The notes under the pieces are model-generated. The model did no database searches and was not told where the DNA came from. It was given only the letters and a program-made list of their open reading frames with translations. 4,919 bases of DNA from a virus (taxonomy: Duplodnaviria; Heunggongvirae; Uroviricota; Caudoviricetes), in IMG/VR virus record IMGVR_UViG_2703718769_000001, positions 1 through 4,919 of that record. The stretch is one strand, 5' to 3'. Position 1 is the stretch's first letter. Each line of letters begins with the position of its first letter. Positions 2,689 to 4,919 of this stretch are shown piece by piece. Both the position numbers and the translations under genes were made by a program.

Positions 2689-3162
2689 CTAGAACGGAAT
2701 ATCCGAATCGTCGAAGTTCATAGGTGGTTCGCTGTGATTCCCATGCTGCTGAGATTGCTGTCTTTGTTGCTGGCCGTTATTTCGCTGAGGTGAAGACTGT
2801 TCATTGCTTCCTTGCTTGCCACCAAGCATTTGCATGGTTCCACCAACGCCCACGATAACTTCGGTAGTGAACCGATCCTGTCCGCTTTGATCCTGCCATT
2901 TTCTTGTCCGCAATTTTCCTTCAAGATAAACCTCAGAGCCTTTTCGCAGATATTCGCTGGCAATTTCTGCCAGTTTCCCGCTCATTACCACACGGTGCCA
3001 CTCCGTCTGCTCCTTTTGCTCTCCAGTTTGCTTATCACGCCATTGTTCTGACGTAGCAACTGTAAGGTTTGCAAATGCCGTTCCTGATGGTGAATATCTG
3101 ATTTCTGGATCATGCCCAAGGCGACCAATAATGATCACCTTATTTACGCCTCTGCTTGCCAT
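2689..3162 (-). CDS. ssb: Single-stranded DNA-binding protein, phage-encoded (157 aa)
   Basis: Translation [23 protein letters not shown]...[52 protein letters not shown]...DDSDIPF shows an SSB OB-fold core, Gly/Gln-rich linker and acidic C-terminal tail ending DIPF. ATG immediately follows the TAA of the upstream gene. Confidence 0.9.
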
Positions 3163-3870
3163 TTATGCCGCCTGTTTTAGCTCGTTAACTCTGATGTTCA
3201 TTACCTGAACGCATTTAGCCTGCGCCTCCTCGTTTCCAGCCATTAATTGCCAGTCACGCTGATAACGCTCGATGAGTTTTTTCTTGTCAGTTTCTGTTGA
3301 CGCATAATCGCTGAAGTCTTTCAGGATTTGTTCGCAGTCAACCGATGGAGATTTCTGGTTGGTATTTTCTGGTGATGGTTTGTTATCTGATGCTGGGATT
3401 GCCCATCCCGGCAGCGATGGAGGGAGCCAGTAAAATCCTGTTCCATCCTTCAGTTTTGCCCTGTGCCACCCCTGCTTTTTATCGAGAGATGTTTGTGCGA
3501 AACCTTCCTCAAGGTTATACAGATACCGACCGATTCCCCACTGAACGGCAGCGCGCTTCATTGCACCGGAACGACCACCTTTGACGGCTTCTACCTGCGT
3601 GTTTTCAGCAGCATCCCATTTGGTTACCCATTCGGAATCAATCTTTATTGATATGCCGCATTCAACGCCGCCGTTGTTGGGAATATCGCGGTATTCATTG
3701 CGCCATCCTGCTTTGCCGCAAACATCGTCCAGGCGTTTCATGATTGCCCGGTTCGTGACATAAGCCAGCACCATAGCCCACACCTTGCCATCGCGTGTTT
3801 TACCGCTTTGCTGTATTCGCCATTCGATATCTTCAGGGCTGAATGGCTCATCGAATTTGTTCAAATCCAT
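3163..3870 (-). CDS. Rad52/Sak-type single-strand annealing protein, phage recombinase (235 aa)
   Basis: ATG at 3868-3870 with GAGGTG upstream. N-terminal FDEPFSPEDIEWRIQQ...AMVLAYVTNRAIMKRLDDVCGKAGWRNEY matches the pattern recalled for phage Rad52-family annealing proteins; sits directly upstream of ssb. Family assignment is from memory. Confidence 0.65.
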   Translation of the reverse strand: MDLNKFDEPFSPEDIEWRIQQSGKTRDGKVWAMVLAYVTNRAIMKRLDDVCGKAGWRNEYRDIPNNGGVECGISIKIDSEWVTKWDAAENTQVEAVKGGRSGAMKRAAVQWGIGRYLYNLEEGFAQTSLDKKQGWHRAKLKDGTGFYWLPPSLPGWAIPASDNKPSPENTNQKSPSVDCEQILKDFSDYASTETDKKKLIERYQRDWQLMAGNEEAQAKCVQVMNIRVNELKQAA

Positions 3871-3878
3871 AATTCACC

Positions 3879-4049
3879 TCAGAATGGACACGGCCCAAGG
3901 AAATAACGCTGATTTAATACTTCGACTCGGGACAAATTAAGGCATACCCGCATTCCTTCGCGGTCACCATTATGGCGATACCAGAGAGCTTTCTGAGTGT
4001 ACATGCGCCTCTGTAACTTGCTCTCCTTCACTGTGGTTGCAAGTGACAT
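3879..4049 (-). CDS. Small basic hypothetical protein (56 aa; MSLATTVKESKLQRRMYTQKALWYRHNGDREGMRVCLNLSRVEVLNQRYFLGPCPF) at the position of gam/arf in lambda/P22
   Basis: ATG at 4047-4049 with AAGGAG at 6-nt spacing (4056-4061); its TGA stop overlaps the Shine-Dalgarno of the annealing-protein gene. A competing 52-aa ORF (3970..4128) starts on an ATGA overlap with kil, so the true frame is unresolved. Confidence 0.35.
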   Translation of the reverse strand: MSLATTVKESKLQRRMYTQKALWYRHNGDREGMRVCLNLSRVEVLNQRYFLGPCPF

Positions 4050-4124
4050 GAATATCTCCTTCGTTACCGATTAATTCTTTCATCTGACGAATGAATTCTT
4101 CGTCTGACCAGTTATCTGTAAAAC

Positions 4125-4277
4125 TCATTTCCTGCGATACCACGGAAGGTTGATAGCTGATTTCATCGCTTTATTTGCTTCAAGCCACATTTTGGAATCA
4201 CCAATAAATCTGGCTATTACTGCTTTGTTCTGTGCAGCGCGAAGCATCTGGTGATTGATGTCTATTTCATTGCGCAT
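4125..4277 (-). CDS. kil: Kil-like host cell-division inhibitor peptide (50 aa)
   Basis: ATG at 4275-4277, overlapping the 3' end of the cIII homolog by 16 nt. Translation MRNEIDINHQMLRAAQNKAVIARFIGDSKMWLEANKAMKSAINLPWYRRK; the IA.FIGD.KM..EA core resembles lambda Kil as recalled, and the position right after cIII matches lambda. Confidence 0.55.
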   Translation of the reverse strand: MRNEIDINHQMLRAAQNKAVIARFIGDSKMWLEANKAMKSAINLPWYRRK

Positions 4278-4393
4278 AATAAGACCTCAACTCTTTTCCA
4301 TCCGTCACGTAATTTACGGGTGATTCGTTCAAGTAAAGATTCATTTAGTTGGAAGGCACCCATGCGAGCGCCTCCCGCGATTGCGTAAATCAT
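4262..4393 (-). CDS. cIII: cIII homolog, FtsH/HflB protease inhibitor (43 aa)
   Basis: ATG at 4391-4393 with AAGGAA 7 nt upstream. Translation MIYAIAGGARMGAFQLNESLLERITRKLRDGWKRVEVLLCAMK contains the ESLLERITRKLRDGWKR helix recalled from lambda cIII. Below the track's 60-aa cut-off. Confidence 0.8.
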   Translation of the reverse strand: MIYAIAGGARMGAFQLNESLLERITRKLRDGWKRVEVLLCAMK

Positions 4394-4417
4394 GGGTGGT
4401 TCCTTATATTGGTTTTA

Positions 4418-4919
4418 TTAGTAGGTTATTTTTGTTGCGAATACTTCGCCTTTTACGATGGCTGTTATGATATTTTTAGCAACATCTTCTGATGCACCAA
4501 CCTTGATAAGGTCAGCAAGTATTTTGTTATTTACTTCTTTCCGGTGAGCTTTATCCTTTGCTCTACGCTCTTCTTCGTCCTTGATTCTTTTTTCTTCTGC
4601 TATTCTGGCTTGCTCTTTTGCTTCAGCCTCGCGCCGGATTCGTTCAGCCTCCTCCTGTGCTTTTCGGCGTTCTGCTTCAATTGCCGCATGCTTTTCTCTT
4701 TCAGCTCGTTCTGCTGCCTCTTTTGCTTCGCGCTGTGCTCGTTGCTCGGCTTCAATGCGTTCACGCTCTGCACGTTCCGCTGCGGCCTTAGCTTCTGCTT
4801 CTCGCCTTGCTGCTGCTTCAATTTCGGCTTTTGCCTTTGCTTCGGCTTCTGCTCTGGCTTTCTCTTCAGCTTCTCTTTTTAAGCGTTCTTCATGTGAACC
4901 GCCCCGGGAATCCTGGAGA
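4418..4919 (-). CDS. Charged low-complexity coiled-coil protein, 5'-partial (start beyond window end); superficially TolA domain II-like
   Basis: Minus-strand frame is open from the window edge for 166 codons to tandem TAA TAA at 4415-4420. Translation ...EAEEKARAEAEAKAKAEIEAAARREAEAKAAAERAERERIEAEQRAQREAKEAAERAEREKHAAIEAERRKAQEEAERIRREAEAKEQARIAEEKRIKDEEERRAKDKAHRKEVNNKILADLIKVGASEDVAKNIITAIVKGEVFATKITY. Not in the ORF track because no start is in the window. Confidence 0.55.
   Translation of the reverse strand, partial: LQDSRGGSHEERLKREAEEKARAEAEAKAKAEIEAAARREAEAKAAAERAERERIEAEQRAQREAKEAAERAEREKHAAIEAERRKAQEEAERIRREAEAKEQARIAEEKRIKDEEERRAKDKAHRKEVNNKILADLIKVGASEDVAKNIITAIVKGEVFATKITY
4540..4890. 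repeat. Low-complexity pyrimidine-rich (plus strand) cryptic simple-sequence tract, GCTTC/GCTGC-type units, encoding the E/A/R/K repeat region
   Basis: Visible reiteration of gcttc, gctgc, ttctgc and cttttgc motifs; all three frames on both strands are low-complexity, which explains the spurious track ORFs 4544..4882(+) and 4600..4821(-). Confidence 0.6.
4895..4919. repeat. Right copy of terminal inverted repeat (tgaaccgccccgggaatcctggaga)
   Basis: Inverted partner of 2-26 (23/25). Lies inside the 5'-partial coiled-coil ORF. Confidence 0.8.

Follow-up and report, generated by a model that had tools for sequence, protein, structure and literature searches.

The 250-nt block between kil and the annealing-protein gene in this stretch of phage DNA (the window, all 4,919 nucleotides analysed) very probably holds two real genes, termed here ORF-A and ORF-B. 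Both lie beyond what chance would give: each has a full-length match to a phage protein family (phrog_2123 and phrog_1723, respectively) and each is under frame-specific purifying selection. Both are also already known as annotated genes of the phages Sf6, HK022 and CUS-3. It is proposed that the block forms a compact cassette of two genes within the lambdoid early-left (PL) operon, from which two separate small proteins, candidate accessory factors of recombination, would be made from overlapping frames; taken as a whole, this explanation is on balance probable.

The initial annotation had described the two ORFs as mutually exclusive, with at most one likely to be real. That view is not borne out, because both are conserved, selected in their own frames, found separately from one another and, in Sf6 and HK022, already annotated together. 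The alternative offered at the time, that they are expressed as an overlapping pair, is favoured by the sequence comparisons, and inside the overlap it is the frame of ORF-B that selection favours. These results overturn nothing in current understanding. With Arf and Abc1, ORF-A and ORF-B are among the last unexplained genes of the well-studied lambdoid recombination module.

Layout and putative expression of the block

All of the genes at this locus lie on the minus strand, as read from the sequence. The gene cIII (4262..4393; 43 aa; Pfam Lambda_CIII, E 4e-15) overlaps the start of kil (4125..4277; 50 aa; Pfam Lambda_Kil, E 1.8e-20; phrog_2055, E 4.4e-35; Sf6 gene 31). The block (3879–4128) follows, with the acidic, 52-aa ORF-A (3970..4128) and the basic, 56-aa ORF-B (3879..4049), which correspond to genes 30 and 29 of Sf6 and to 42.1 and 42 of HK022. 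Downstream lie the genes for a Rad52-type single-strand annealing protein (3163..3870; 235 aa; Pfam Rad52_Rad22, E 5e-26; phrog_1097, E 3.5e-130; Sf6 gene 28) and a phage SSB whose translation ends in DSDIPF (2689..3162, minus strand; 157 aa; Pfam SSB, E 1.7e-38). The coordinates, sizes and charges first given for the two ORFs, and their overlap of 80 nt in different frames, are exact to the base, and the sites described around them are all present.

The kil stop codon TGA (4125–4127) overlaps the ORF-A ATG (4126–4128) as ATGA. The sequence has no canonical Shine–Dalgarno site at normal spacing 5′ of this ATG, and an in-frame GTG at 4141–4143 offers an alternative start that would give 57 aa. 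It is proposed that ribosomes ending kil restart at the overlapping ATGA to translate ORF-A. ORF-B, in the +1 frame relative to ORF-A and sharing positions 3970–4049 with it, would initiate independently at its ATG (4047–4049) from its own strong Shine–Dalgarno site, AAGGAG (4056–4061), which is written in ORF-A codons 23–25 (Glu-Gly-Asp) and followed by the 6-nt spacer ATATTC. An equivalent site, GAAGGAG, precedes ORF-B in loci L171 and L175. At its other end, the ORF-B stop codon TGA (3879–3881) falls in the Shine–Dalgarno site GAGGTG (3875–3880) of the annealing gene, 4 nt before that gene's ATG (3868–3870), and the gap between the two genes is 8 nt. Since ORF-B ends inside this ribosome-binding site, translation of the two genes is probably coupled; the same arrangement recurs in L174, L171 and the phages SPN9CC and HK629. 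As read from these signals, the scheme of restart, independent initiation and coupling is likely.

An RNA-element explanation of the block was dropped, as the whole window gave no Rfam match at E ≤ 1, no terminator and a single promoter-like site, fewer than expected by chance.

Families, neighbours and candidate functions

The match of ORF-B to phrog_1723 (the HK620 HkaM family; E 9.4e-36) aligns its residues 1–56 with positions 3–58 of the 58-position profile, which also retrieves HkaM of HK629 (E 3.6e-33) and an Erwinia phage protein (E 4e-16). ORF-B shares the traits of this family, with a length within 56–65 aa, a basic composition (pI 10.0, net charge +5.6) and a C-terminus, NQRYFLGPCPF, of the form F-L-G-x-x-P-F. 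Full-length homologues stay 56 aa long down to 66% identity, and a Pro-Phe end is common to all full-length representatives retrieved from a search of 1.84 billion proteins. As these residues are kept while their codons vary (CCA, CCG or CCC; TTC or TTT), the alignments indicate that the Pro-Phe end is under protein-level constraint. AlphaFold2 models ORF-B with a pLDDT of 92 as a helical hairpin (helices at residues 7–27 and 30–51), and the protein is predicted to be a basic hairpin with a flexible tail ending in Pro-Phe. A Foldseek search of the PDB with this model retrieved no more than helical hairpins of a generic kind and designed minibinders (E ≥ 1.4). PDB sequence searches gave no significant relatives of either ORF, and a Cas1 match at E 0.2 was taken as chance.

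ORF-A (pI 4.4, net charge −9) matches phrog_2123 (Sf6 gp30/HK022 42.1) over the full length of the profile (E 1.5e-40). Its N-terminal module (codons 1–26, 4051..4128; MSFTDNWSDEEFIRQMKELIGNEGDI) carries the motif MS[FI][TA]D.W[ST][DE][DE].F[IV]R.M, which is conserved both in the ORF-A alignment and in divergent loci. Residues M1, S2, D5, W7, S8, F12, R14 and M16 are invariant in the eight-sequence alignment; position 8 is T in L182, a locus found later and outside that alignment. AlphaFold2 predicts a helix at residues 9–19 (pLDDT ~80) and a disordered tail (pLDDT ~50). This acidic, hydrophilic tail (codons 27–52, 3973..4050) lies inside the overlap; its amino acids are not conserved, and its sequence and stop position vary by lineage to give totals of 52–56 aa. 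As aligned and modelled, ORF-A is a conserved N-terminal amphipathic helix of 20–26 residues followed by an acidic, disordered tail that is free to vary, and the sequence comparisons show its likely functional part to be only the first ~26 residues. A genome-wide search for distant relatives of ORF-A gave seven loci, two of them usefully divergent.

Domain libraries added little. Neither ORF matched Pfam at E ≤ 1; ORF-B had no match in NCBIfam, where the sole match of ORF-A was to an unrelated enzyme and below threshold (12.8 bits against a cut-off of 545). Extended to Arf and HkaM, these scans yielded no informative family.

The window is ~98.5% identical to Shigella phage Sf6, in which genes 30 and 29 are annotated, overlapping as they do here and likewise flanked by kil and the recombinase gene. 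The Sf6 block (98.4% nucleotide identity; ORF-B protein 100%, ORF-A 96%) does not differ materially from that of the window. HK022 (42.1/42) and CUS-3 (ECRS218_0052/0053) also have both ORFs annotated in this layout, and in these two phages the downstream gene is erf rather than a Rad52-type gene. In all three phages the products are annotated merely as hypothetical proteins; the 'recombinase' label attached to both genes by PHROG-derived pipelines is baseless. Of 5426 complete E. coli genomes, 856 contain at least 80% of the length of the block. The cassette thus occurs in roughly one in six of them, and annotations of it are inconsistent, calling none, one or both of its genes.

Each gene is also found alone. 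ORF-B occurs without ORF-A in S9-5, L172, L174, Erwinia phage vB_EhrS_59 and HK629 (HkaM type), and stand-alone copies keep the same N-terminus (MSLATT...). HK140 and Enterobacter adelaidei in turn have ORF-A but not ORF-B; their versions, of 35 and 39 aa, respectively, stand ahead of unrelated genes. SPN9CC shows the same kind of overlap as the pair described here, there between an ORF-A-type and an HkaM-type gene. The limits of the block, window positions 4128 and 3878, coincide with the points at which similarity to related phages is lost. The gene after ORF-B is a Rad52-type, Erf-type or Sak4/AAA_24 annealing gene in all loci but one, S9-5, where it is annotated as an endonuclease.

By analogy with Arf, which serves P22 Erf, ORF-A and ORF-B may be accessory factors of the recombination module. 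This functional assignment is weak, and that both proteins act in the module is put forward tentatively. Since ORF-B precedes Rad52-type, Erf-type and RecA-like Sak4 genes alike, it probably acts on something common to them; candidate targets are a host factor or single-stranded DNA coated with SSB, for example, rather than the annealing fold. Two features of ORF-B provide an experimental handle: its invariant Pro-Phe end and its strict position ahead of annealing proteins of any type.

The P22 comparison was checked and the slot does hold arf there, in the order kil–arf–erf. Arf (Pfam PF17585, phrog_2445), whose molecular function is unknown (PMC12315714), resembles ORF-A in lying downstream of kil, in size (47 versus 52 aa), in pI (4.05 versus 4.4) and in an N-terminal motif (F-S-D-E-E-F-I versus W-S-D-E-E-F-I). 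Three ORF-A variants align in a common register with the Arf PHROG (E 0.04–0.06), among which the ORF-A of the window matches at E 0.044 over 22 residues. These matches are not significant, and the Pfam search at E ≤ 1 included PF17585. ORF-A, small and acidic like Arf, is likewise encoded downstream of kil and upstream of the annealing gene, but ORF-B intervenes, whereas Arf abuts erf through an ATGA overlap; moreover, the conserved C-terminal half of Arf (INLAAERQNP...WDEFAGYYS) has no counterpart in ORF-A. Homology between ORF-A and Arf is not claimed because hhalign gave a probability of only 13% (P 0.0022, 16 columns), and the likeness is limited to position, size, charge and the SDEEFI motif. 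ORF-B bears no resemblance to Arf.

HkaM of HK620 (HK620p13), first annotated as 'arf' by position alone, is instead the counterpart of ORF-B: it belongs to phrog_1723, is basic and ~60 aa long, ends in PF and immediately precedes the annealing gene, whose ribosome-binding site contains the HkaM stop codon. It differs from ORF-B in sequence (~32% identity), in length (62 aa), in following kil through ATGA without an ORF-A and in preceding Sak4. HkaM has been called an orphan of unknown function, and in HK620 sak4 and ssb alone fully restored the recombineering boost of the whole hkaM-containing module; oligonucleotide recombineering therefore does not require this member of the ORF-B family (PMC5928155). 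A literature search on HK97 gp42.1, HkaM and Sf6 gp29/gp30 found nothing beyond PMC5928155 and PMC12315714.

The two genes of the cassette could, again by analogy, be real and yet encode host-takeover or counter-defence factors, such as a small protein that inhibits a host nuclease or an immune sensor, that merely travel beside the recombination genes. In lambda, the position after kil and before the annealing-protein gene belongs to Gam, a coiled-coil dimer of 138 aa that acts as an inhibitor of RecBCD. Phage inhibitors are typically small, charged and partly disordered. The indifference of ORF-B to the type of annealing protein, the occurrence of ORF-A ahead of a non-ORF-B gene in a RecT module and the finding that HkaM adds nothing to Sak4 plus SSB recombineering (PMC5928155) also point in this direction. 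Against it, ORF-B shows tight synteny with the annealing gene, and overlap of its stop codon with that gene's ribosome-binding site, in almost every lineage. The mosaic unit keeps the cassette joined to the kil-to-recombinase junction. The phages studied already carry Abc2, which fills the role of lambda Gam against RecBCD. Gam itself, placed in this slot by the legend to Figure 3 of PMC5928155, has no sequence similarity to either ORF. The homology search suggested in the initial annotation gave no match of either peptide to Gam, Abc1 or Abc2 (Pfam at E ≤ 1 and NCBIfam), and no known inhibitor family was matched in Pfam, NCBIfam or PHROGs. The counter-defence interpretation is accordingly judged unlikely, though it keeps appreciable weight.

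A far more speculative possibility concerns the Pro-Phe end of ORF-B. Bacterial SSB (...DDDIPF) docks partner proteins through its terminal Pro-Phe, and the end of ORF-B matches the last two residues of the phage SSB encoded here. That the ORF-B family (HkaM type) consists of mimics of the SSB C-terminal tip is a long shot. If true, ORF-B could plug or borrow the SSB-tip pocket of the phage annealing protein or of a host enzyme (a single-strand exonuclease or a helicase, for example), and this would explain its presence beside three unrelated types of annealing protein. Acidic ORF-A could then be a partner or regulator of ORF-B, and the A–B fusions of HK97 and of variant P0021 would be a Rosetta-stone hint of their pairing.

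Selection by reading frame

Substitutions were counted by the Nei–Gojobori method and pN/pS was calculated by frame from pairwise comparisons, which are not phylogenetically independent. The block is exactly 250 nt long in the window, in HK022 (87% nucleotide identity), in metagenome locus L175 (78%) and in Enterobacter phage vB_Ecl_MII_001 (64%). In the part belonging to ORF-A only (codons 2–26), pN/pS was 0.26–0.45 in frame A and 0.8–2.8 in the other two frames; pooling codons 2–20 over seven lineages gave 0.34 in frame A (pS 0.56) against 0.79 and 1.80. Across the overlap, pN/pS was 0.21–0.60 in frame B and 1.4–7.7 in frame A, and in the part belonging to ORF-B only, frame B gave 0.13–0.26. 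Synonymous sites in ORF-A approach saturation in some pairs; between L175 and L182, 10 of 11 have changed, compared with three of 46 non-synonymous sites, and the replacements in ORF-A are conservative (F/I, D/E, I/V and K/Q).

In the ORF-B frame, 160 near-identical IMG/VR loci show 16 synonymous and 10 non-synonymous changes outside the overlap, and eight and four, respectively, inside it; the synonymous fraction expected is ~0.21–0.24. The block was matched without a gap in 160 of 162 related loci; among those 160, ORF-A is intact in 159 (one has a stop codon) and ORF-B in all. Locus L067 has an 18-nt duplication that preserves the frame of ORF-B.

These comparisons show purifying selection on ORF-A codons 2–26 and on the whole of ORF-B, and an unconstrained ORF-A tail in the overlap. 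The test of synonymous against non-synonymous change recommended by the initial annotation thus speaks for both genes except in that tail, and the outcome foreseen there of conservation in neither frame is contradicted by relatives in which both are conserved. The ORF-A signal is clear in direction and statistically modest, because the conserved part spans ~25 codons and the pairwise comparisons are non-independent. The practical use of these results is in genome annotation, where, on frame-resolved selection, both genes should be called.

That ORF-B is the sole gene, with ORF-A a non-functional frame, or a translated leader bringing ribosomes from kil to the ORF-B start, conserved for nucleotide-level roles (the ORF-B ribosome-binding site and a recombination junction), is quite improbable. 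Such a reading accommodates the unconstrained tail, the frequent omission of ORF-A by PGAP and phage annotators, and the ORF-A ATG with no canonical Shine–Dalgarno site. The length of ORF-A is also ordinary given the ORF-B sequence: at least 52 open codons arose in the ORF-A frame in 37% of synonymous ORF-B reshuffles (P = 0.37), so the long open tail was dropped as a sign of selection. Part of the conservation of ORF-A, at Glu-Gly 23–24, could come from the ORF-B Shine–Dalgarno site, and the first 50 nt of ORF-A, 100% identical across otherwise different phages, also fit a recombination junction. The low frame-A pN/pS with near-saturated synonymous sites and the conservative replacements nevertheless argue for a protein. 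In HK140 and Enterobacter adelaidei, moreover, the ORF-A module is kept as a gene of 35–39 aa with no ORF-B to serve. The overlap of its start with an upstream stop codon is kept after three different genes, as ATGA after kil or a cIII-like gene and as TAGTG after a KilR-type gene; in L182, ORF-A starts with GTG at the stop codon of the cIII-like gene. In-frame 21-nt duplications are tolerated in the ORF-A variants P0036 and P0050.

Fusions of ORF-A and ORF-B

In HK97, Gp42.1/Gp42 is encoded by homologous DNA (97% identity) at the same position, and a 2-nt insertion joins ORF-A residues 1–43 to ORF-B residues 19–56 in an 83-aa protein; the frames are separate in the window. Fusions of 81–82 aa also occur in the protein database (P0001, P0005, P0021 in 36 contigs, P0023, P0024, P0027, P0031 and P0069). 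An indel that merges the ORFs, named in the initial annotation as grounds for doubting them, therefore exists in HK97 and in rare variants, but the junctions vary and the ORFs are separate in 159 of 160 close relatives. A programmed frameshift was rejected because the junctions are scattered across the whole overlap, with no single slippery site, and the sequence after the internal Shine–Dalgarno site has no stop codon or rare-codon slippery motif. That ORF-A and ORF-B are one gene, either an 82–83-aa protein that has been frameshifted or mis-sequenced or a programmed +1 frameshift fusion, is hardly credible despite the HK97 and database fusions, given junctions scattered as by random indels or sequencing errors, the gap-free block of the close relatives, its exact spacing down to 64% identity, and an ORF-B that carries a strong ribosome-binding site and an ATG of its own and exists alone with the same N-terminus. 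The Gp42 annotated in HK97 begins at an internal start within the frame of the 83-aa fusion.

Genomic context and translation signals

All long ORFs of the window lie on the minus strand and make up an early-left operon of the lambdoid or P22-like phage type. In operon order, cIII (4262–4393) is followed by kil (4125–4277), two small ORFs termed ORF-A (3970–4128; 52 aa) and ORF-B (3879–4049; 56 aa), the gene for a Rad52-type annealing protein (3163–3870), SSB (2689–3162) and several further early genes. Positions 3600–4400 share 98.5–98.6% identity with Shigella phage Sf6 and phage IME10.

The signals described for the two ORFs in the initial annotation are all present. The ATG of ORF-A shares an ATGA with the kil stop codon, and an AAGGAG Shine–Dalgarno motif (4056–4061) lies 6 nt 5′ of the ORF-B ATG. 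The ORF-B stop codon, TGA (3879–3881), overlaps the GAGGTG Shine–Dalgarno sequence of the annealing gene (3875–3880). The ORFs overlap by 80 nt, ORF-B being in the +1 frame relative to ORF-A, and are acidic (ORF-A, pI 4.4) and basic (ORF-B, pI 10.0). Judging from these features, re-initiation at the end of kil would lead to translation of ORF-A, ORF-B would initiate at its own strong site within ORF-A, and the annealing gene would probably be translationally coupled to the end of ORF-B.

Both genes are already known, as they are annotated in several phages. Sf6 lists ORF-A as gene 30 ('similar to HK97 gene 42.1') and ORF-B as gene 29 ('similar to HK97 gene 42'), and both are also annotated in CUS-3 and HK022. 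Both give full-length matches to PHROG families (ORF-A, phrog_2123, E 1.5e-40; ORF-B, phrog_1723, E 9.4e-36); the 'recombinase' label of both families is without visible basis. At least 80% of the length of the 250-nt block spanning the ORFs (3879–4128) is present in 856 of 5426 complete E. coli genomes, where the number of genes that PGAP calls beneath it varies from zero to two.

Frame-specific constraint and fused forms

The two ORFs had been read either as mutually exclusive, with at most one real, or as an expressed overlapping pair. Frame-specific constraint on both, and the occurrence of each gene alone, contradict mutual exclusivity; the overlapping pair is supported by this constraint together with the joint annotation in Sf6, CUS-3 and HK022. 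Among 160 gap-free IMG/VR copies of the block (69 distinct sequences), ORF-A is intact in 159 and ORF-B in all 160. Against a chance-expected synonymous fraction of ~0.21–0.24, frame B carries 16 synonymous and 10 non-synonymous changes in the ORF-B-only part, and 8 and 4 in the overlap, where frame A carries 3 and 9.

Divergent copies tell more about selection than these close relatives. The block is exactly 250 nt long in HK022 (87% identity), a metagenomic locus (L175; 78%) and Enterobacter phage vB_Ecl_MII_001 (64%). Nei–Gojobori pN/pS ratios from divergent copies, of which the direction is robust but the exact values are not, given how short the regions are and that the pairs have common ancestry, were 0.26–0.45 in frame A, 0.8–2.8 in frame B and 0.8–2.5 in the third frame for the ORF-A-only part (codons 2–26); 1.4–7.7, 0.21–0.60 and 0.8–1.7, respectively, for the overlap; and 1.5–3.6, 0.13–0.26 and 0.6–1.05 for the ORF-B-only part. 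When the ORF-A comparison was widened by four lineages (Pseudocitrobacter, Enterobacter adelaidei, SPN9CC and HK140), pooled pN/pS over codons 2–20 was 0.34 (pS 0.56), with 0.79 and 1.80 in the control frames. Constraint spans the whole length of ORF-B and is limited in ORF-A to the first ~26 residues, the ORF-A tail within the overlap just tracking the ORF-B sequence. As 37% of synonymous ORF-B reshuffles leave at least 52 ORF-A codons open, the open tail is not significant in itself.

A single-base indel merging the ORFs had also been envisaged. Fused forms do exist, but the ORFs are intact and separate in 159 of the 160 gap-free copies. In HK97 (L168 1201–1452), a 2-nt insertion, which may be genuine or stem from an old sequencing error, joins ORF-A residues 1–43 to ORF-B residues 19–56, giving the 83-aa Gp42.1; it also disrupts ORF-B's own frame after 16 codons. 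Further A–B fusions of 81–82 aa occur in the protein database, one of them (P0021) on 36 contigs, with junctions spread across the overlap. These scattered junctions, the start signals of ORF-B and the near-universal separate layout argue against a programmed frameshift and fit sporadic indels. Both genes also have variants with in-frame tandem duplications: EFIRQMK is present two or three times in ORF-A variants (21-nt units; P0036 and P0050), and an 18-nt duplication in ORF-B yields YRHNGE/YRHNGD (L067 1193–1460).

Separate occurrence and mosaic boundaries

ORF-B occurs without ORF-A in Salmonella phage S9-5, behind a non-coding spacer; in locus L172, directly 3′ of a cIII-like gene; in locus L174; in Erwinia phage vB_EhrS_59 (48% identity); and in the HK620/HK629 HkaM type, joined to kil by an ATGA overlap. 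In the Erwinia phage, the ORF-B homologue is preceded by a 49-aa gene (L169 1355–1504) that ends in ...DFDFIRALYEMVSPGVKR, loosely like the ORF-A motif DEEFIRQMKELI; a PHROG search gave no significant link. Conversely, ORF-A occurs without ORF-B in Enterobacter adelaidei (39 aa) and in HK140 (L165 1501–1608), where an unannotated 35-aa gene, MSFTDNWSDEEFIRQMNKMLNQHKEQEKDDDSDSE, precedes a RecT module. This HK140 gene overlaps its neighbours on either side, HK140_044 and HK140_042; several RefSeq phage records miss the ORF-A-type gene or mislabel it as 'CIII anti-termination'. SPN9CC shows the overlapping layout again with other partners, a 60-aa ORF-A-type gene overlapping an HkaM-type gene.

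The ORF-A start always overlaps the stop of the upstream gene, whether lambda-type kil, KilR-type kil or cIII-like. Similarity to other phages stops at the block edges, 4128 and 3878; some phages instead diverge past the first 50–57 nt of ORF-A. The first 50 nt (4079–4128) are 100% identical in HK140, Louie, vB_EcoP-683R2, PDP110P1 and others despite unrelated downstream sequence, and act as a mosaic junction within the coding region.

Positions 1–1875 lack Sf6 alignment except for short pieces (815–841 and 1731–1880), so the distal early-left genes form a mosaic set different from that of Sf6. At the right, an Ala/Glu/Lys/Arg-rich minus-strand ORF (4440–4919) runs off the window; its Sf6 counterpart is gene 33 ('similar to phage D3 Orf53'), and an insertion-sequence end at 4895 truncates the ORF. 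A 25-nt inverted repeat, 92% complementary, occupies both window ends (2–26 and 4895–4919) and is not phage sequence, the Sf6 alignment stopping at 4894. A multicopy IS3-family element (median 3, maximum 52 copies per E. coli genome) has the 25-mer TGAACCGCCCCGGGAATCCTGGAGA as its outer end; the next ORF is an HTH_Tnp_1 transposase, in a region annotated 'transposase | AL1L pseudoknot'. Two outward-facing IS ends therefore bound the window, a prophage fragment or contig.

Predicted proteins and candidate roles

ORF-A is predicted to form a single short helix (residues 9–19) followed by a disordered acidic tail. It shares slot, size, acidity and an x-S-D-E-E-F-I motif with P22 Arf (MQHEFSDEEFIALISPEIEEEVEQQINLAAERQNPIIGWDEFAGYYS). 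In the homology comparison suggested against Gam, Arf and Abc proteins, Pfam returned nothing for ORF-A, the Arf PHROG reached E of only ~0.04 (consistently across three ORF-A variants), hhalign gave 13% probability, and Pfam/NCBIfam showed no resemblance of either peptide to Gam, Abc1 or Abc2. ORF-A therefore appears Arf-like by position and character, and Arf family membership is not claimed. According to a survey of lambdoid recombination modules published in 2025 (PMC12315714), what Arf and Abc1 do at the molecular level is itself unknown.

ORF-B is a member of the HkaM family. The hkaM gene of HK620 was initially named 'arf' on position alone and later described as an orphan without P22 Arf homology (PMC5928155). 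The AlphaFold2 model of ORF-B is a helical hairpin (helices 7–27 and 30–51; pLDDT 92) with a less ordered C-terminal tail. Foldseek and PDB sequence searches with ORF-B returned nothing specific. Its profile found only 21 matches at E≤0.001 among 1.84 billion representative proteins. Besides full-length family members of 56–65 aa, these comprise fragments and chimeric ORFs, plus three longer proteins that match weakly and appear unrelated.

From synteny, ORF-A and ORF-B may be accessory factors of the recombination module. In HK620, sak4 and ssb alone fully restore the recombineering activity of the whole module (PMC5928155). A serious rival, which we consider rather unlikely, is that the two are counter-defence or host-takeover factors. 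Under the accessory-factor reading, the gene after ORF-B may be Rad52-type, Erf-type or Sak4-type; this indifference of ORF-B to annealing type points to a shared target, e.g. SSB-coated single-stranded DNA or a host protein. Every full-length ORF-B family member retrieved ends in Pro-Phe, although the codons for both residues vary; speculatively, and as a lead rather than a finding, this invariant C-terminus recalls the SSB tip.
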